A stretch of DNA of 64,000 nt. It comes from a virus. Shown one piece after another: positions 270-54,067 of this stretch. Within the stretch, counting starts at the first letter, position 1; every line of letters starts with the position of its first letter. The notes under the pieces were generated by a model. The model searched no databases. It had not been told where the DNA came from and was given only the letters and a program-made list of their open reading frames with translations. The position numbers and the translations under genes were made by a program. The DNA lies in IMG/VR virus record IMGVR_UViG_3300018875_000004, positions 1-64,000 of that record; one strand, 5' to 3'.

Positions 270-1601
270 ATGAAAACCATGGAAATGACGCATGACGCTC
301 AGCAAGAACAAGCCGCTGATTTGCAGATCGCAGACGCTGCAAGCAAAGAAAGCAAGATCACGATTAAAACATCCGCCCTGCTTAAAGCGGTGCAACGTGC
401 AGCATCTATTGTCAACCACGGACACTCTCTTGCTGTTCTCCAGAACGTTTACTTCTCGTATAGTGAAAGTGGCGTAACGCTGCGTGCCGCAAACGATCAC
501 TATTACATCGAGACGTATATCGCCCAGGAACATTGCGTATTGGAAGGCGAAGGACGTGACCTGCTGCTGCCAGCCAAGCGCTTCCTGGACATCATCAGCA
601 AACTGAGCGGCAGCAATACCACTCTGGTTGTCTCCGGCAAATCCGTTCGTATCAAATCCGGACGTGCGAAGATGGACATCACCAGCCTGGAAGCGGACGA
701 GTTCCCGGCATTCCCGACGATCAAAAAGGGCAAGTCGTTCGAGATCGATGCGCCTTCTCTGCTGCACATGTACACGGTGACGGAGTACGCAACATCTAAA
801 CTGCAAGACCAACCTGTACTCACCGGCGTATGCCATGACATTACCAAAAAGCAGTTCCGCTGCATTGCGACCGACCGCCACCGCTTCTCTCAGAACTACC
901 ATCCGACCGAAGTGGACTGCGAGGACATCCGCAGCAGCGTGCCGACTTCCACGATCAAAGAGGTCATGAAGCACCTGAAGACAGCTGACAATGTAACGCT
1001 GACTGTTGACGATAGCCATGTTATTTACAACCTGGGTGATGTGATCATCTTCTCCCGTGTTCTCGAAGGCAGCTACCCGGATACGGATAAGATCATTCCT
1101 GTATCTGCTGCAGCGACGATTACGATCCCGAACTCGGACTTCCTGGGCGCTGTGAAGCGTGCTGCGATCTTCCTTGACGAATCCGGTTCGTCTAAGATTA
1201 CCATCATGATTCACGGCAGCAACAACCAGATGCGCGTGCAAGCGGTAGACAGCGCGGACGGAACCATGTTGGAGGATATGACAACTGTCAAAGGAGAAGG
1301 CGACTTCGGTATTGCGACGATGAACGGTCGCTACCTGCTGGACGCACTCAGCAAGATTGCACCACAGTCCCATATTCAACTGAAAATCACGCCAAAAGCG
1401 CCGGTGGTCATCCGCGAGATGAACGCGCTCAATGGCGACGTGGCTGTTGTTGTTCCAGTCAAACACGCTAATGATAAGCTGACCGAGATCAACAACTTCA
1501 TGCCAAGCTACGATGAAGAAGTCGATCCGTTTGCAAAACAAGCGGAAAGCTACGCTGAGGAAGCGTCTGAAGCGAAAAACACAGAAGAAGATGCCGCATA
1601 A
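270..1601 (+). CDS. dnaN: DNA polymerase III beta sliding clamp with acidic terminal extensions
   Basis: Clamp motifs ADEFPAFP, QPVLTGV, IATDRHR, SRVLEGSYPD, MNGRYLLDAL; RBS AGGAGG. Confidence 0.93.
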   Translation: MKTMEMTHDAQQEQAADLQIADAASKESKITIKTSALLKAVQRAASIVNHGHSLAVLQNVYFSYSESGVTLRAANDHYYIETYIAQEHCVLEGEGRDLLLPAKRFLDIISKLSGSNTTLVVSGKSVRIKSGRAKMDITSLEADEFPAFPTIKKGKSFEIDAPSLLHMYTVTEYATSKLQDQPVLTGVCHDITKKQFRCIATDRHRFSQNYHPTEVDCEDIRSSVPTSTIKEVMKHLKTADNVTLTVDDSHVIYNLGDVIIFSRVLEGSYPDTDKIIPVSAAATITIPNSDFLGAVKRAAIFLDESGSSKITIMIHGSNNQMRVQAVDSADGTMLEDMTTVKGEGDFGIATMNGRYLLDALSKIAPQSHIQLKITPKAPVVIREMNALNGDVAVVVPVKHANDKLTEINNFMPSYDEEVDPFAKQAESYAEEASEAKNTEEDAA

Positions 1602-1623
1602 TCCATTTTTCTTAAAATAACTC

Positions 1624-1670
1624 TTGATTTTAGCTTGTAGCGTGTTATAATCAAAATGTAACGCGTTACA
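1624..1670 (+). promoter_or_regulatory. SigA-like promoter with operator palindrome at +1
   Basis: TTGATT-N16-TATAAT (1624-1651), then TGTAACGCGTTACA at 1657-1670; a degenerate second copy at 1636-1649. Confidence 0.75.
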
Positions 1671-1698
1671 AGCTCACACTATTAGGGAGCTGATAACT

Positions 1699-1914
1699 AT
1701 GGCAATGCCAATCGAACAACTCATGCAAAATACACCTGTACAAACTATCGTGCCAATCTTCGACTTTACCAATAAGCGGAGTGGAGACCAGGTTCAATGC
1801 GCAGACGGTCCGTATTCATTCGGGGAAAAAGTCTTCGTGGTTGAAAATGGAATGATCCAAAACGTATGGGCAGACGAAGAAGGCCAGATGGCTTTTGAAC
1901 TCGAAGGGATTTGA
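1699..1914 (+). CDS. hypothetical protein ending in a clamp-binding-like motif (QMAF)
   Basis: RBS GGGAG; first ORF after the promoter. Confidence 0.7.
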   Translation: MAMPIEQLMQNTPVQTIVPIFDFTNKRSGDQVQCADGPYSFGEKVFVVENGMIQNVWADEEGQMAFELEGI

Positions 1915-2156
1915 AGCGAATGACACCGGACGTTCAACGTTCGATCTTTGCAACTAACGCATTTGCATCGCAGTATCCGGAAGAGCATACAGCGCTTTGG
2001 CACCAGTTTGAAGAAGCTGTTCCTCAGCAGAAGCGATCCGGATACTACGGCGCAGACAACGCAGCTTACGTCAAATGGCTGCGCGAAACCAAACAACCCC
2101 TGTTCCTTTCCTTTTTGCAAGCGAGCATCGAGGGTAAACAGTTTGGACAACCATGA
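1911..2156 (+). CDS. hypothetical protein
   Basis: Overlaps the stop of the upstream ORF; AAGGG RBS-like sequence. Confidence 0.65.
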   Translation: MKRMTPDVQRSIFATNAFASQYPEEHTALWHQFEEAVPQQKRSGYYGADNAAYVKWLRETKQPLFLSFLQASIEGKQFGQP

Positions 2157-2224
2157 ATGATGCCGGGCAGGAGCCATCCTGTCACGCATGGAGCACATCA
2201 CCGCTGATTATTTATAATTGACCT

Positions 2225-2748
2225 GCGGAGGTAGGTGATGTGTTCCATGGGTAATCTTATCCCATTACCTATTGCAAGAATGTAATGCTGTGAGGCTGCT
2301 ACTACCGCAGGCTATAACCTGCTACAGTCAGATGGAATGCAGCCGTGCAGGGCCGCCACCTTGCACACATTCTTGCCTCTCATTCAGCGCACAAGTGTAC
2401 TGTCCCCCCGGTCTTAGAGGACAGCGGCTTGTAACAGAAACCGGTAAAGGAGCCGACCTTGTGCGTTGAATGAGGGTTTTGCATTAGCCTTTCCCCGTTC
2501 CCTCATCAAAAACTATGGAAGAGGCAGGTTACAGAGGTTCGCCTTCATGGAAACTCGCTTATTCGAGAGTAGGTCAGTAGGAGCTGCAGACCCGAAAGCC
2601 CAAAACGGTAAGTTTGTGGAAAGCAAAAACCAATCGATGTGACTATGCGCTGCATCGGCGTTGTTCAGAAGAGGATGTCAATCTCTGGCGAGTTTTCTGA
2701 ATCTGGACCGCGTACTACATAGCTTGCCGGCGATCTATCCCGGCATTG
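2225..2748 (+). ncRNA. large structured non-coding RNA, class uncertain (GOLLD-like candidate)
   Basis: About 520 nt without a credible ORF. Helices 2232-2240/2263-2271, 2274-2283/2367-2376, 2379-2395/2458-2474; long-range pair 2315-2322/2524-2531; kissing pair 2408-2412/2440-2444. Abuts a tRNA-like element. Confidence 0.65.
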
Positions 2749-2749
2749 C

Positions 2750-2825
2750 GCTGGGATAGCTTAACGGTAGAGCGCTCGCAGCATCCAATTGCGAGAGATT
2801 AGAGGTTCGACTCCCGTTCCCAGCT
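2750..2825 (+). tRNA. atypical tRNA-like RNA (TCC/Gly-like loop on a 7-bp anticodon stem)
   Basis: Acceptor GCTGGGA/TCCCAGC, D arm GCTT-AACGGTA-GAGC, T loop TTCGACT. T stem has two mismatches; anticodon arm CTCGCAG-CATCCAA-TTGCGAG; no encoded CCA. Confidence 0.7.
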
Positions 2826-2837
2826 TCAAAACAGACA

Positions 2838-3512
2838 ATGGGGGAAATGGACATGAGCGAAATTTCAATGGTTACAGAAGAAGTTGTGGGTGTGAATTTT
2901 GGACTGGCGATCCGCACGTTCGATAAAGAAGCCGTACTGGATGCAGAAGGCGTCAGCGATCAACAGTTCCAGTCCGTAATCGACGGATTCTTCGCTAACC
3001 TGAATGGTGTAACGCCACCGCAAAGACCAGTATCTGAGGAGGGCATCAACGAAGCTCCGGCTGCAAAGCCTGAACCGCCTGTCGAAGCTGTTCCTAAAAA
3101 TACGTCTTATGAGCCTGCGGAAGCGAAGGCAGAAGTTAAGCAAGAACCGCAACTGCCGAAAGAGCAGACAGAAGACGAATATCACTACATTACAGAAGAT
3201 CGCGTGGGTCAACTTTCTAATGATGCACCTGATCACCTTAAAACAGGAATCAAAATCATCAACCATGTTGAGCACTTCAAAACCCGCTACGTATGTCCGA
3301 AATGCGAAAAAAAAGGTAGTCGCTATATTCCGGAAGGCGCTACGTCTACCGATTGTCACCATTGTATGACGACCATGCAAGTAAAGAAAGCTGTACCAGG
3401 AGTATACGGACTAGACAGAGACGCATTCGGCAACTTCTATGTTGCAGGTAGTCAAAAGCCGGTTAAAGTGGTTTCGGTTGATCAATACAAAAAATTGAAT
3501 AAACGTTCTTAA
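2838..3512 (+). CDS. hypothetical protein with C-terminal Zn-ribbon
   Basis: CPKC...CHHC; long ORF between the two tRNA-like elements. Confidence 0.8.
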   Translation: MGEMDMSEISMVTEEVVGVNFGLAIRTFDKEAVLDAEGVSDQQFQSVIDGFFANLNGVTPPQRPVSEEGINEAPAAKPEPPVEAVPKNTSYEPAEAKAEVKQEPQLPKEQTEDEYHYITEDRVGQLSNDAPDHLKTGIKIINHVEHFKTRYVCPKCEKKGSRYIPEGATSTDCHHCMTTMQVKKAVPGVYGLDRDAFGNFYVAGSQKPVKVVSVDQYKKLNKRS

Positions 3513-3556
3513 TATAATATGATATATTCTGCCTGGCTTCGGCCGGGCAGCATTAT

Positions 3557-3638
3557 GCAGAGGTAGCGAAGTGGCTTAACGCATGGGGCGCGCGCGATTT
3601 TTAACCCCATTTCGCAGGTTCAAATCCCGCCTTCTGCT
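3557..3638 (+). tRNA. tRNA-like RNA with a 16-nt non-decoding anticodon loop
   Basis: Acceptor GCAGAGG/CTTCTGC, D arm GCG-AAGTGGCTTAA-CGC, T arm GCAGG-TTCAAAT-CCCGC, anticodon arm ATGGGG-CGCGCGCGATTTTTAA-CCCCAT. Confidence 0.7.
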
Positions 3639-3662
3639 TATCTTTTTTAGGAGGTCTTCCTT

Positions 3663-3935
3663 ATGAATCCAGGTCAAGAAGTGTTTTGGGTGTCGCAATC
3701 TCAAGGAACAACTACGAAAAAGAGAGGCCGAGTAGTAGGAACTGTCGGAAGATCCAAGAGTGCATTTAATCTTCTCCCAGAGGGCTTGCCTAAATCTCGG
3801 ATCAAGTTTCAAGAGTTCAATCTTACAGGAACCCGTGTTATTGTCGAGGTGCCACGTGGTGGAAAAAGTAAACTTTCTGATTTTTATGCTCCATACGCAT
3901 CAATGATTAAACTTGTGGAAGACACTTCCGAGTGA
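3663..3935 (+). CDS. hypothetical phage protein
   Basis: RBS AGGAGG, basic 90-aa ORF. Confidence 0.8.
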   Translation: MNPGQEVFWVSQSQGTTTKKRGRVVGTVGRSKSAFNLLPEGLPKSRIKFQEFNLTGTRVIVEVPRGGKSKLSDFYAPYASMIKLVEDTSE

Positions 3936-3939
3936 TCGG

Positions 3940-4450
3940 AGCTTCCATTTAGCACACAAGTAAAGACCGTAGATCAGCCAGGAACCTCTGCAGATAGTGG
4001 AGTGACGCGGTGTTCGTCATTAAGCGATACTGTAGGCATGTGGCGCAAGCTGCTGTGAGTCCAATTGTTCTCTGGTGCATAAGCTTAAATTTGGGATCAG
4101 GTGCAACAAGTGCCAATGTGCAGGGTAGATTACCCGAATCGGTTGCTTTGAGTTTCCGCCAAGCGGATCGGATGAATGCTTGGACAGTTCGCTGTTCATG
4201 ACCGTGAAAAACACCTTTTATCTTATATACTCAAAGACCTGCAGCTTGTGTGTTAAATGGAGTATGTGGGGCAGATTAAGCTTCCATGGACAGGACGAGG
4301 GTAGAGCTGACAAACATTTAACAGGTAGGTTCTTCAGGCATCGAGCAGGTGGGTGCCTGAAGACTATCATTAAATTCCTACAGTGCCGAAAGGCCATGGT
4401 TTGTTGTCCCTAACGTAAACGATCCGAAGCTCACAGGTGATCTGCAGCCG
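3940..4450 (+). ncRNA. ROOL-family large non-coding RNA
   Basis: Ordered segments resembling ROOL as I recall it: CGTAGATCAGCCA, GCTGTGAG, GGTAGATTACCCGAAT, GGATGAAT, CATGGTTTGTTGT-CCTAAC, AGGTGATCT. Pairings seen directly: 3944-3960/4245-4261, 3969-3976/4438-4445, 4029-4036/4377-4384. Confidence 0.8.
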
Positions 4451-4494
4451 GATAAGCGGTAAAGACCGGCACAATTTATTTCAGGAGGGCGTCT

Positions 4495-4791
4495 ATGAAC
4501 ATCAAACTGCGTAACGGGAAGGAAGCTGTATATAAATCGTCCAGGGAAACCCGGATTCCTGATATGGGTATTGATGATATGACGGAAGTTCACTCCTACC
4601 ACATTCCATGCCCTGTATGTGACCACAGCGAAGAGAACATCGCGGTGTCTCAGGATGGAATCGTGTTTCTTAACAACCAGATTATTTGTCGGTTCTGCGG
4701 AGTCTTCTTCCGGCCAGTGATAGACCCTGATTTTATTAAGCAAAAGCGCACATTGCGTGATATACTGTTATCCAACGAAGCCGGCCAATGA
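4495..4791 (+). CDS. Zn-ribbon hypothetical protein
   Basis: CPVC...CRFC; RBS AGGAGG. Confidence 0.75.
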   Translation: MNIKLRNGKEAVYKSSRETRIPDMGIDDMTEVHSYHIPCPVCDHSEENIAVSQDGIVFLNNQIICRFCGVFFRPVIDPDFIKQKRTLRDILLSNEAGQ

Positions 4792-4825
4792 GTCGGCTTT
4801 TATTAATTTGCAAAGGGGATTTTCC

Positions 4826-5158
4826 ATGACTAACCAAAAAATCATTGCAAAATTGCAAAAGAAGTATCAAAATGTAGAGGTCAGAGTTTTGGAGCAATCC
4901 GAGGCTGATGATCGTGTAGATGTTGTCGGCCTGATTTATCAGAAGAATGGGCTGCCGAGCAAACCCAGCCCCGGCTTGCTTGAAGTGAACAAAATCTGGG
5001 ATCCAAACGGAGACCGTCCGACAGGATTCTTGATCTTCGATTCATTCGAGAGAGAAGACGGCGTTGTCATGTCTATTATGGTATCGATAGACTGGTTGGA
5101 CACCATCTCAAGCCGCAAGCCGTACCTTGAAAAGTGGAAAGCTGACTTCGTGCAATAG
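4826..5158 (+). CDS. hypothetical protein
   Basis: Start moved to the ATG at 4826 behind RBS AAGGGG. Confidence 0.7.
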   Translation: MTNQKIIAKLQKKYQNVEVRVLEQSEADDRVDVVGLIYQKNGLPSKPSPGLLEVNKIWDPNGDRPTGFLIFDSFEREDGVVMSIMVSIDWLDTISSRKPYLEKWKADFVQ

Positions 5159-12143: not shown

Positions 12144-12948
12144 CGAAATCATCATCTTAGATGCCTGGATGCAGTTGGATCATGAAGGCAACTATATGAA
12201 TATGTATACGGATCGTAACGAAGCGATCACTAACCACCCCGATGATAATTTCATTCAAGGCTATACGCTTTCTGCCGGCTCTGATATGAACGACTTTATC
12301 GAGGACAACTTCGAGGATTTTTATCCGGAGCGCGGTGCCATGGACACGCTGCTGCGTAAGCATGATCTGATGCAGTATGTAAACGACATGACTGAGAGTC
12401 GTTGGACTCTGATTCATGTCGAGAACGGCATTCACACAGTCATGTTTCATGGGTTGCATTTGAACGCCGTCACACTGAACTTTGACGATGAATTGATGAA
12501 GATGAAATACCCTGGATGGAATAGTCCGTATGCTACAATTCGATGTCCTCATTGCCTTGCCTTATCTTCGGAGTTCAAATGGAACGTGGCCACATTGGTT
12601 GACTTCGACTCAGGCTATAATTTCACCCGTATTCAAAACATTGAAGAACACGAGCATGATACTGGATTTACTTGTCCGCAATGTTTTCGTGAATCGACAT
12701 CCAGCGAACTGAACTTCATTCCAGAAGGATATGTGCTGCTTAAATCCAACCCCGAAATTAAGATGTATCTTTCGGATGATGATGTGGTCGTCTATCTTCG
12801 TTTTGAAGGCGCGAAAGAATTGCTTAATACCAATGAGCCGTTTGCTTTTGCTATTGCCAGCGCCAAGGATATCTTCAGAGCCAACTACTTTGTCAAAAAG
12901 GAGGACTACCGTGGAGACGAATCCGGATCTGCAGCAGAAAATTCTTAA
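12133..12948 (+). CDS. hypothetical protein with Zn-finger (CPHC...CPQC)
   Basis: Start moved to ATG 12133 behind GGAAGG. Confidence 0.75.
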   Translation: MQDNEIIILDAWMQLDHEGNYMNMYTDRNEAITNHPDDNFIQGYTLSAGSDMNDFIEDNFEDFYPERGAMDTLLRKHDLMQYVNDMTESRWTLIHVENGIHTVMFHGLHLNAVTLNFDDELMKMKYPGWNSPYATIRCPHCLALSSEFKWNVATLVDFDSGYNFTRIQNIEEHEHDTGFTCPQCFRESTSSELNFIPEGYVLLKSNPEIKMYLSDDDVVVYLRFEGAKELLNTNEPFAFAIASAKDIFRANYFVKKEDYRGDESGSAAENS

Positions 12949-17147: not shown

Positions 17148-17266
17148 AAAAAAGACCCCACGAATGAGGTCTTTTAAATCATAAGCAGGGCGGCGTATCC
17201 TGATCTCTTATAACTTGCTGAACCAGCAAGCGTGTGGGGAACCTTTCCCACCTCGAATGATTTAGT
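17148..17266 (-). ncRNA. putative small RNA
   Basis: TTTACT-N17-TATTAT promoter (17273-17301), three hairpins, terminator AAGACCTCA-TTCG-TGGGGTCTTTTTT. Confidence 0.5.
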
Positions 17267-20361: not shown

Positions 20362-20386
20362 TGTAATGCGTTACATTTGCATTATA
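20362..20386 (-). promoter_or_regulatory. -10 box plus operator upstream of the lysin
   Basis: TATAAT-N5-TGTAACGCATTACA on the - strand. Confidence 0.7.
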
Positions 20387-29625: not shown

Positions 29626-29650
29626 TGTAATGCGTTACAAACACATTATA
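29626..29650 (-). promoter_or_regulatory. -10 box plus operator
   Basis: TGT-TATAAT-N5-TGTAACGCATTACA on the - strand. Confidence 0.7.
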
Positions 29651-37138: not shown

Positions 37139-37152
37139 TGTAACGCGTTACA
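37139..37152. promoter_or_regulatory. operator palindrome upstream of nrdI
   Basis: Perfect TGTAACGCGTTACA. Confidence 0.75.
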
Positions 37153-37659: not shown

Positions 37660-37891
37660 GGCTATTTCCTCTTTTCGTTTTGTTTTGTAATGCGTTACAA
37701 TTCTTCGAATCCCTCTTTATCCTCTGCTTCTTCTTCGGTTGTTTGGCAGCTTGGACAGAAAGAGACATTACAGCATGGACAGGTAGTAAAATATTCCAAA
37801 CATGACTGACAATACATATTCCTTCGTCCTTTCAGATGAAATAAATCGACCAGTTGTTCAGATCCGAAACTAAAAATCGCTTAGAAACGAA

Positions 37892-52000: not shown

Positions 52001-54067
52001 TCACTTTGCTTGCAGCTGCAGCCGCATGATCTTCGGTGTAATGTGGGGAATGCTTTCGTCCCGCTTCATCGAAGCCCGGGCTACAACCTGATTATTCTGA
52101 ATAGAGCTATCAATGACTTCATAGACCAGTTGGAAGATGCAGTTGGTCGGCAGGTAGTTTAGGACAACCTGGTTTTCATAGATGGCAAAGTAGTCTCGGT
52201 TGTTTGGCGAGATATTGTAATACAGCGAATGCTCGTCCACGATTTTAAGACTATCCTTATCTGCCCTTACCCGTTTCTCCATCAGGAAGTTAAACTTGCC
52301 AAGCAGGGTTTCATTCGGCAGATTGCTGTCGGCAAAGTCTTGCCGCAGCTGCATATCGCCCCAGTGAAACAGGATTTGAATCTCACTCCAGCCGGCAGCC
52401 AGTGTCAGCGTGACTTCTTCGTTGGATGGCACCATGCGTTTGCCGTCTACATAAACTGCATACGTGCCGATTCGTTTACGGACTCCGGATACCGTCTGAA
52501 TGACAGCCAGGGATAAAGGTTCGACTCTGGCTTCTTCGCTATATACACAAGTTGTAAAGCGATACATATTGTCGGACTTTCCGCCGTTTTCCCGGCGCAA
52601 GCTCAACTGGTTGCCGATTGGAATATAGTCGGTACGGATCATCTCCGGCCGGTTATCGTACTGGGTTTTCCATGCGCTGTTCAGCGGAATCGTGCCGTCA
52701 AACTTCACATACGTCCGCTCTCTTCTCCACTGGTTAATGCCGCGCAGCAGGATTGGATTCTGGATGTCGTCAAAGCTGTCCGGCAGTGTGCCGTCTTTAT
52801 CATCCTTGAGCAGCCGGAACACCTTCATGCCGTTCTTTACTTCCTCTGTCGTTTCTGCTTGTCCGAACTCGATGTTCTTCGATGCTCGTGCGTTGAATGC
52901 CACCGTCTTGGAATACTTCGGTGTGCTGTCTTCTGAGGAGCTGATCGGATACCAGATGAGGTTATCCAGTGCAGTCGTATCATTCGTCAGGGCGACTTCG
53001 TAATCAATCGATGTGCCGAATGGAATATCGTGCGAGGCAGTCAGGGAAACCATGTTGATGTTATCGGAGCTGAAGACGAAAGGCTGCGTGATCATAACCC
53101 CTTCGCTCAGATAACTCTTCTTGGAGATGGAAATGGTTTTAGCACCAAAATAATAATTGTAGACGCCAGCCGAGTTGTCATCGTGGTCTTTCTTCTCATA
53201 CGTAAACTTGATGGCCTTCACCTTCAGCTGGGAGAAGTTCCAGATGGCTCGATCGCTGACAGACTGTTTATTATTCTTTTCCGGAAGCGGCGTAAACGTC
53301 GATCCATCCAGGGAGTACTCCACCTGAATAAGCATTGCCTTTCCGTGGTGGGCGACATATTCCACTTCGTTGATTTCTTCTTGCCCGGCCAGACGGATCG
53401 TAAGCTCTGCCTTCACCGTTCCCGGACTGGTCGTCTTGACCACATGCCACCAGGCGGTATTGACGTTATCATCGAATGCGTTGTTGATCGTCTCGATGGC
53501 CGCCGTCTTCAGGTTCGGCGTGAGCGCGGTAAACGTCGCTTGTGAGCCGTTGATCAGAACCTTATTACTCTGCCTTTGATTTTCTTTCAGTGTGATCTGA
53601 CCGTTATTCAGATCGATGGCCGTCGTGCTGTTCGCGGTATTCACCCGACTGGTATCGATGAAGTCTTCGATTACCGTATCCAGGTAGCTGCTGCCGGCGC
53701 CTGACACAAGCAGAAGCTGGTCAATCTTTTTGGAGAGCGTGGCCAGCTCATGGCTGATTTTATCCCGCTCCGTTTCCGCAAAGTTGAAGTCATTCATAAT
53801 GCGGATGGTTTGGTTAATCGTGGCGTCATACAAGTCGCCAATGTCCTGGTGGATCATCGTCACATTATCATTGTATCTTTCGCTGTCAGACTTCTCTTTA
53901 CGGAGAACCTTGAGCGGCGAAAAGGACGGAGCCCCGGGAGTGTGTTCCCGGAGCCATTGTCCCAAATGATAAGTGATGGTTTGAATACTGGGGTACCGTC
54001 CGCGCTGCAGGTAAGACCTTACGATCTTCTCGACGACGCGGGATAGCTGTGTCTGCCGGATGCCCAT
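52001..54067 (-). CDS. virion-type protein, paralogue family
   Basis: SERYN...I.QDI.DLY; NAFDDNVNTAW; YYFGAK.I. Confidence 0.75.
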   Translation of the reverse strand: MGIRQTQLSRVVEKIVRSYLQRGRYPSIQTITYHLGQWLREHTPGAPSFSPLKVLRKEKSDSERYNDNVTMIHQDIGDLYDATINQTIRIMNDFNFAETERDKISHELATLSKKIDQLLLVSGAGSSYLDTVIEDFIDTSRVNTANSTTAIDLNNGQITLKENQRQSNKVLINGSQATFTALTPNLKTAAIETINNAFDDNVNTAWWHVVKTTSPGTVKAELTIRLAGQEEINEVEYVAHHGKAMLIQVEYSLDGSTFTPLPEKNNKQSVSDRAIWNFSQLKVKAIKFTYEKKDHDDNSAGVYNYYFGAKTISISKKSYLSEGVMITQPFVFSSDNINMVSLTASHDIPFGTSIDYEVALTNDTTALDNLIWYPISSSEDSTPKYSKTVAFNARASKNIEFGQAETTEEVKNGMKVFRLLKDDKDGTLPDSFDDIQNPILLRGINQWRRERTYVKFDGTIPLNSAWKTQYDNRPEMIRTDYIPIGNQLSLRRENGGKSDNMYRFTTCVYSEEARVEPLSLAVIQTVSGVRKRIGTYAVYVDGKRMVPSNEEVTLTLAAGWSEIQILFHWGDMQLRQDFADSNLPNETLLGKFNFLMEKRVRADKDSLKIVDEHSLYYNISPNNRDYFAIYENQVVLNYLPTNCIFQLVYEVIDSSIQNNQVVARASMKRDESIPHITPKIMRLQLQAK

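Follow-up and report, generated by a model that had tools for sequence, protein, structure and literature searches.

To our knowledge, only a handful of large bacterial RNA classes have no known function, GOLLD and ROOL among them. Both are large pseudoknotted RNAs found in phages and prophages near tRNA islands, their function is unknown, and they form cages through kissing loops, one of which had initially been taken as intramolecular (PMC12286853). The locus described here resembles them in its location in a phage-type element, in its tRNA-type neighbors, in its pseudoknots, and in having variable regions beside conserved ones. A phage or prophage setting was evident from the capsid, terminase, and ParM genes of related elements and from a tRNA-like element at positions 2750-2825. 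The locus differs in that its RNA (RNA1) had no model match, has a smaller scaffold (about 340 nt), and was found in six phage-plasmids only. The cages of ROOL and GOLLD are multimers of RNA only.

The locus is in a 64,000-nt stretch of DNA (the window), which is the first part of a 96-kb IMG/VR virus record; the dnaN protein of the window was also found on a record from a 213-kb contig. A 680-nt gap (2157-2837) without credible ORFs separates a small conserved ORF (1911-2156) from a 224-aa ORF, and its 3' end is occupied by the tRNA-type element. The original prediction was that positions 2225-2748 encode a discrete, pseudoknotted RNA of approximately 520 nt beside this element, either GOLLD-like or of a new class. 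Folding statistics and the collection of relatives agreed with a structured RNA of an undescribed family, and led to the withdrawal of GOLLD and to different boundaries. The gap encodes a strand-specific, non-coding, pseudoknotted RNA made up of a conserved scaffold and a long arm, the tip of which is exchangeable. The overall reading that was preferred, with a probability of about 0.6, is that positions 2272-2749 are the first module of an island of non-coding RNAs and tRNA-like elements, in which a scaffold with an exchangeable arm would act by its shape.

Six elements carry the island: the window and five relatives, which were located with two protein anchors, dnaN and the small ORF immediately upstream of RNA1. 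The relatives are a P. urinalis plasmid (NZ_CP118109; L002), a contig assigned to Paenibacillus sp. TCA20 (L020), a P. rhizovicinus plasmid (L003), and two IMG/VR contigs (L021 and L023). These Paenibacillus elements of approximately 200-230 kb were considered to be phage-plasmids because of their capsid, terminase, and ParM genes. When phage and plasmid collections were searched at the DNA level, the P. urinalis plasmid was the sole match. Scanning IMG/VR, GTDB genomes, and JGI metagenomes for helix-arm patterns yielded only P. rhizovicinus and one chance match, an alphaproteobacterial terminator (L007). A helix-arm match at window position 52885, within a 688-aa ORF, was also attributed to chance. 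No match to the dnaN protein was found in GTDB contigs, and the RNA island was absent from the more distant Bacillus-type relatives (L005, L006, L027, L029, and L030). RNA1 belongs to an uncatalogued family of narrow range, limited to a few Paenibacillus phage-plasmids of about 200 kb.

In P. urinalis, the whole 1.6 kb is one gene-free block with the order RNA1, tRNA-Leu, a 270-nt RNA, a tRNA-like element, and a second large RNA (RNA2). The island of the window is divided by two protein genes, and that of L023 has another order of RNA modules and is divided by an ORF. The RNA1 core (2355-2480, 96%) and RNA2 (80% over about 540 nt) were more similar between the window and P. urinalis than the flanking genes were (55-66%; 62% for dnaN, 56% and 66% for the two small ORFs), and the tRNA-like element was 83% identical. 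Identity was about 52% across 2481-2640, with conserved islands within it, and essentially none across 2641-2749. Two pairs among the six carrier elements are close relatives. P. urinalis and TCA20 are 93% identical across the island and differ by clean replacements at three sites (the P1 insert, the P2 tip, and an RNA2 sub-domain), and P. rhizovicinus and L021 are about 90% identical downstream.

These comparisons place the conserved RNA at about 2272-2612 rather than at 2225-2748, and both ends of the predicted unit are specific to the window, because 2157-2271 is absent from the relatives and conservation does not extend into the tail (2640-2749). P1 begins 3-4 nt past the stop codon of the upstream ORF in P. 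urinalis and TCA20, so these two lack the stretch at 2184-2252. All three helices that had been named originally (2232-2240/2263-2271, 2274-2283/2367-2376, and 2379-2395/2458-2474) are present. The first of these has 9 bp, including one G-U, and a stronger 19-bp hairpin competes with it (2184-2202/2234-2252, Table 1).

Table 1. Features of the RNA1 operon, with positions in the window
Feature	Position	Strand	Description
Operon promoter	1624..1651	+	TTGATT-16-TGTTATAAT; sigma-70-type, 10/12 consensus, extended -10
Window-specific hairpin	2184..2252	+	19 bp, 2184-2202/2234-2252; inverted repeat I1, 89% complementary
P1 domain	2272..2378	+	Helix 2274-2283/2367-2376, 10 bp; encloses variable insert
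Long-range pseudoknot, 5' strand	2315..2322	+	UAACCUGC; predicted to pair with 2524-2531
P2 domain	2377..2476	+	19-bp helix 2377-2395/2458-2476, three-way junction on top
P2 tip	2396..2457	+	Hairpin A 2400-2405/2419-2424 and hairpin B 2425-2430/2450-2455
Pseudoknot beside P2	2470..2525	+	Predicted stem a 2470-2476/2500-2506, stem b 2487-2494/2517-2525; A-rich loop
Long-range pseudoknot, 3' strand	2524..2531	+	GCAGGUUA; 8 Watson-Crick pairs with 2315-2322
Conserved 3' block	2559..2612	+	UUAUUCGAGAGUAGGU..GUAGG.GCUGCAGA.CCGA..ACGGUA
Non-conserved tail	2613..2749	+	Hairpins, e.g. 2726-2730/2740-2744; abuts tRNA-like element
tRNA-like element	2750..2825	+	Rfam tRNA 43.8 bits; ARAGORN Gly-UCC
RNA2, second large RNA	3936..4494	+	Helix 3944-3960/4245-4261, sequence paralog of P2 helix
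Terminator-like hairpin, operon end	4777..4800	+	9-bp stem, then T run

The promoter upstream of the small ORFs was also found in P. urinalis (L002 8361-8388). On the + strand after this promoter, no terminator-like site was found before a weak one at 3926 and the one at 4777. Because the promoter and the first good terminator frame the island, the two small ORFs, RNA1, the tRNA-like elements, and RNA2 constitute one operon. The TATAAT at 2213, which had been listed with the RNA, is present in the loop of the window-specific hairpin, outside the conserved RNA; it has no -35 element and is not conserved, and the transcript carrying RNA1 therefore probably starts at the operon promoter.

The 14-bp palindrome TGTAAYGCRTTACA occurs in six copies in the 96-kb record, five in the window (1657-1670, 20362-20375, 29626-29639, 37139-37152, and 37686-37699) and one farther along the full record (79917). 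At 1657, the palindrome is 6 bp past the -10 of the operon promoter; the copies at 20362 and 29626 likewise adjoin -10-like hexamers, and P. urinalis, TCA20, L021, and L023 each have one copy at this promoter. This palindrome looks like the operator of a phage-plasmid regulator. The neighboring small proteins gave no functional hint, and no candidate partner for RNA1 was found among the neighboring proteins or in the full annotation of the P. urinalis plasmid. A Y-RNA-type reading had no support, because that annotation contained no Ro, RtcB, or RNA ligase gene.

The + strand had a fold z-score of -3.77 relative to shuffled sequences, as compared to -1.60 for the - strand. For the P2 domain alone (2377-2476) the z-score was -5.85, and P2 domains of five lineages ranged from -4.7 to -6.9. 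Comparison with the relatives supports three predicted pairings, which are P2, the long-range pair between 2315 and 2524, and the pseudoknot at 2470-2525. Covariation among the relatives was seen for the long-range pair and for stems a and b; it rests on few independent events, given that the carriers number only six and include two closely related pairs. The 8-bp long-range pair is exact, as had been predicted, and is beyond chance, a pair of this length being reached in 45 of 5000 shuffles of the window. Its counterpart in TCA20 (UAACCUA/UAGGUUA), in which G-C is replaced by A-U, was reached in 10 of 5000, and the pair is weaker in P. urinalis (AACCUGU/GUAGGUU), with 5 Watson-Crick and 2 G-U pairs. 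The strands of stem b are GCCUUUCC/GGAAgAGGC in the window and UUCUUC/GAAGAA in P. rhizovicinus and L021, and P. urinalis and TCA20 share ACCCUUU/AAAGGGU. Stem a is either GAGGG/CCCUC or GGGGG paired with CCCCU or CCCCC, and its purine run is common to the foot of P2. The P1 helix (AAGAAUGUGG/CCACAUUCUU) recurs unchanged in P. urinalis and TCA20 and thus shows conservation but no covariation. The insert that it encloses, which terminates in a hairpin (2345-2352/2359-2366), has 83 nt in the window, 195 nt in L002, and about 90 nt in L020. Register errors and pseudoknots made RNAalifold uninformative on MAFFT alignments of the 3' part.

The 3' block was 84% identical to TCA20 over 2559-2596 and contributed to an 82% match to P. 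urinalis over 2359-2595. Similar words (CGAGAGUAGG, GUAGGUG..CCGAAG) were found in L003, L021, and L023, where the alignment is uncertain. In the tail, the hairpins that had been predicted up to 2745 are present and are not conserved; across 2613-2749, identity to P. urinalis was 49% when only the aligned part was counted and 17% when all columns were. P. urinalis has other modules at this site: a covarying hairpin, tRNA-Leu, and the 270-nt RNA. The hairpin, found in five relatives and not in the window, has a conserved loop (..GCGGUGGGUGAGG..) and is at L002 9470-9505 and at about L003 9618-9655, L021 12915-12950, and L023 12385-12420, with the stems GACAACC/GGUUGUC, GAUGGCC/GGUCAUC, GAUGACC/GGUUAUC, and GAUAGCC/GGCUAUC. 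The word CGGUAAAG recurs in the loops of several modules.

A helix of 19-23 bp is present at the P2 site in the window, P. urinalis, TCA20, P. rhizovicinus, and L021, in four unrelated sequences: CUCUCAUUCAGCGCACAAG in the window and P. urinalis, GCUCUCAAU plus GACAUAUGAUCCG in TCA20, CUCCCGAAAGG plus CUCGCAAU in P. rhizovicinus, and CUCCCAAUCAG plus ACGGGAUCUG in L021. The duplexes of these five lineages have 19, 20, 9+13, 11+8, and 11+10 bp, that of the window being an extension of a 17-bp core (2379-2395/2458-2474). L002 9135-9194 matches the window tip at 95% identity. TCA20, P. rhizovicinus, and L021 lack a counterpart of this tip and carry tips of their own, those of the last two being unrelated and 53 and 86 nt long. 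No second copy of any tip was found in the sequences compared, and the search for antisense targets of the tip yielded only chance-level 11-14-mers in the wrong sense. The P2 tip is an exchangeable cassette, and its kissing-loop module is specific to the window and P. urinalis, because the other three lineages carry unrelated tips. The 95-96% identity of these two tips may reflect recent exchange as much as constraint, because TCA20, in which the flanks are 93% identical to P. urinalis, differs. In L021 the tip region (12452-12557) forms a four-way structure of approximately 100 nt that is closed by a 10-bp stem, contains a GGAAUCGGUAAAGA loop resembling a D-loop, and is loosely tRNA-shaped.

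The loop of hairpin A contains CCGGU (2408-2412) and that of hairpin B the palindrome ACCGGU (2440-2445). The complementary loops to which the original prediction drew attention are thus present, as a feature of one lineage-specific tip. The 5-bp match between them (CCGGU/ACCGG) was reached in 573 of 5000 shuffles (p about 0.11), which is not beyond chance, and there is no variation among the relatives by which to test it. A loop word centered on CCGG recurs in the tips as ACCGGU in the window, P. urinalis, and P. rhizovicinus and as UCCGGU in L021, and is not found in TCA20.

A second large RNA had been predicted 1.2 kb away as ROOL-like. This RNA, RNA2, is present and shares a helix with P2, and the region containing it (1600-5000) did not match ROOL at E≤10. 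The shared helix is paralogous to the P2 version of the window and P. urinalis and closes the RNA2 core. Across seven instances of this helix, 116 of the 119 cells were paired and 7 of the 17 pairs had changed on both sides. L023 has a closing helix of the RNA2 type (11877-11889/12259-12271) with a wholly different sequence (UUUAAUGCAUAAC/GUUAUGCAUUAAA), which keeps the usual flanking words (AAAGGCCGUAAG; GUCCUGCAG).

The main alternative to a module that acts by shape is that RNA1 is a processing spacer without a function of its own, in which P2 is an RNase III site with a freely replaceable tip and cleavage separates the mRNA of the small ORFs from the tRNA-like and RNA part of the polycistronic transcript. 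RNase III needs about two turns of double-stranded RNA and little sequence, and the intervening sequences of 23S rRNA are sporadic, exchangeable stem-loops. P2 resembles such stalks, being a sporadic, near-perfect duplex of constant length (19-23 bp, or about two helical turns in the five lineages) with a replaceable tip. Its sequence and tip have been replaced in four lineages, and it sits between the coding and RNA parts of one operon. Unlike such stalks, P2 is surrounded by conserved pseudoknots, and a spacer would leave the covarying pseudoknot, the long-range pair, and the 3' block, all outside P2, unexplained. The RNA2-type helices, at just 13-17 bp, also do not fit, nor does the invariant sequence of 8 of the 17 pairs of the RNA2-related helix. 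A processing spacer was therefore considered unlikely.

The foot of P2 suggests another alternative. The purine run GAGGG (2472-2476) pairs either with CUCUC (2377-2381) in P2 or with the downstream C tract (CCCUC), and both pyrimidine tracts track its A-to-G change between lineages; U2380-A2473 and A2473-U2503 of the window are replaced by C-G pairs in P. rhizovicinus and L021. Because stem a and the foot of P2 are mutually exclusive, the fold as drawn may be one of two states, and the pattern fits two alternating states or a base triplex. If the purine run alternated between its partners so as to control downstream processing or expression, RNA1 would be an RNA switch or leader. However, a base triplex would fit the same pattern, neither a terminator nor a ribosome-binding site is involved, and the downstream part varies, with the tRNA-like element in the window and other RNA modules in the relatives. 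There was also no recognizable ligand-type conserved pocket and no match to an Rfam riboswitch, and a switch seems improbable.

It was given equally little credence that 2355-2477 is a recently acquired mobile or recombined palindromic hairpin, with no role of its own, in an ordinary spacer. Such an origin would account for the 96% identity to P. urinalis with sharp borders against a background of 55-66%, and for the unrelated inserts at the same site in close relatives. However, every lineage has a helix at this site, and apart from the RNA2 helix there are no further copies in the 96-kb record or the P. urinalis plasmid. In addition, G-U at pair 9, the sole non-Watson-Crick pair within the 17-bp helix, is kept in six of the seven instances (A-U in TCA20), and because this pair is the same in these six it fits a + strand RNA and not terminal repeats.

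The gathering score and E≤10 were both used as thresholds in searches of Rfam 15 with the window, short sub-stretches of it, and the relatives, including a 550-nt input with the laxest filters. No Rfam 15 family was found for RNA1 even at E≤10, and therefore RNA1 is not GOLLD, ROOL, OLE, tmRNA, or phi29 pRNA and is a member of no described family. The sole matches were to tRNA and to the skipping-rope RNA (RF02924; window 17178-17261, minus strand, 57 bits, E 5e-11), which is unrelated to RNA1 and whose family, although described, has no known function. Models for tmRNA, RNase P RNA, OLE, and group I-II introns gave no match, and ARAGORN called no tmRNA. It is very unlikely that RNA1 is a diverged member of GOLLD or ROOL, with which it shares the context of a phage or prophage element beside tRNA-type genes and a large pseudoknotted fold (PMC12286853). 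Neither covariance model matched the window or the relatives at E≤10 with short inputs and lax filters, and the conserved scaffold is only about 340 nt. ROOL (RF03087) was not found at E≤10 in 2200-2749, 1600-5000, or L002 8890-10480, and GOLLD (RF01998) was found neither at the gathering score nor at E≤10; RNA1 also lacks the size and pattern of GOLLD, which has about 800 nt and a 3' half that is universally conserved, the conserved part of RNA1 being approximately 2272-2612.

The P2 domain has some likeness to the phi29 pRNA (RF00044), with its end-to-end helix, three-way junction, and two complementary loops. In the phi29 pRNA such loops pair between molecules. The P2 module differs in having no model match, in being lineage-specific, absent from close relatives, and part of a larger RNA, and in its host, a phage-plasmid of approximately 215 kb with a terminase rather than a phi29-like phage. 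A 5-bp match between loops like those of P2 occurs in 11% of shuffles.

A 65-aa ORF (2272-2469) does exist in the window, but a small protein gene can practically be discounted. P. urinalis lacks 1 nt in the best-conserved, near-identical part of the nucleotide sequence, and owing to the resulting frameshift the two products share their sequence up to CPPGL and have nothing in common thereafter; in TCA20 the region is replaced altogether. In other words, the ORF shows none of the coding-type conservation that would have argued against an RNA.

The tRNA-like element has orthologs at L002 9852-9926 and L020 12798-12872, which were not called by ARAGORN. The acceptor, D, and T arms are retained in the orthologs, as is a 7-bp anticodon-type stem, in which the changes are compensatory (CUCGCAG/UUGCGAG vs CUCGUAU/AUACGAG). 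The anticodon-type loop is CAUCCAA in the window and AAACCC in the orthologs, and no CCA is encoded. A decoding tRNA was rejected for this element, as the stem has 7 bp rather than 5 bp and a 7-nt anticodon loop with U33 is not conserved. The tRNA-like elements of the operon have lost a conserved anticodon. A second tRNA-like element in the window (3565-3630) scored 21 bits with the Rfam tRNA model, below the threshold; where the anticodon loop would be, it has a loop of 15-16 nt.

Under the preferred reading of a module that acts by shape, RNA1 would be read through from the operon promoter along with the two small ORFs. RNase P probably cuts at the tRNA-like element at 2750, which would set the 3' end of RNA1 and release it as a stable RNA. 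Among the species 1 and 2 RNAs of the phage T4 tRNA cluster and in the MALAT1-mascRNA transcript, tRNA-processing enzymes release non-tRNA RNAs. RNA1 is likewise a non-tRNA RNA cotranscribed with a tRNA-type element, here presumably processed in a similar manner, and has no sequence relation to these RNAs. The scaffold would consist of P1, the pairing of 2315-2322 with 2524-2531, the pseudoknot at 2470-2525, and the 3' block, and the arm would be a rigid P2 of approximately 20 bp with an exchangeable cassette as its tip. By analogy, RNA1 most likely acts via its shape, as is thought for ROOL and GOLLD. Its processing and stability and the role of the tip are the parts of this scheme that we infer.

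The self-complementary CCGG/ACCGGU loops of the tip could join copies of RNA1 to each other, or RNA1 to the paralogous RNA2. By comparison with the known cages, a role for the tip in multimerization is offered tentatively, and the lack of a CCGG loop in TCA20 and the chance-level loop match argue against kissing-loop assembly. A further-reaching and rather doubtful extension is that a constant scaffold displays a recognition tip, that the self-complementary loops drive type-specific assembly of rings or cages or pairing with RNA2, and that swaps of the tip set self and non-self. If this were true, co-resident phage-plasmids would be distinguished as self or non-self by tip swaps, through an RNA-only specificity system unlike any described for ROOL or GOLLD.

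The island adds a family unrelated to GOLLD and ROOL to the large RNAs of phage tRNA islands. The clean replacement of tips on an unchanged scaffold and the splitting of the window island by genes provide natural module boundaries and ready-made swap mutants. Two carriers, P. urinalis 2022CK-00829 and Paenibacillus sp. TCA20, are in culture, which makes expression, processing, assembly, and knock-out directly testable.

Two further observations concern RNA2. The loop of hairpin A (CCGGUCUU, 2408-2415) is exactly complementary to AAGACCGG (4462-4469) near the 3' end of RNA2, a match of which about 0.05 are expected by chance and which is kept in P. urinalis without covariation. Part of the RNA2 site is within a predicted stem, and there are further occurrences of AAGACC(G) at 3963 and about 4234. 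In P. rhizovicinus, a tRNA (39 bits) is located directly after the RNA2-type helix (L003 10308-10428), with an insert of approximately 50 nt.
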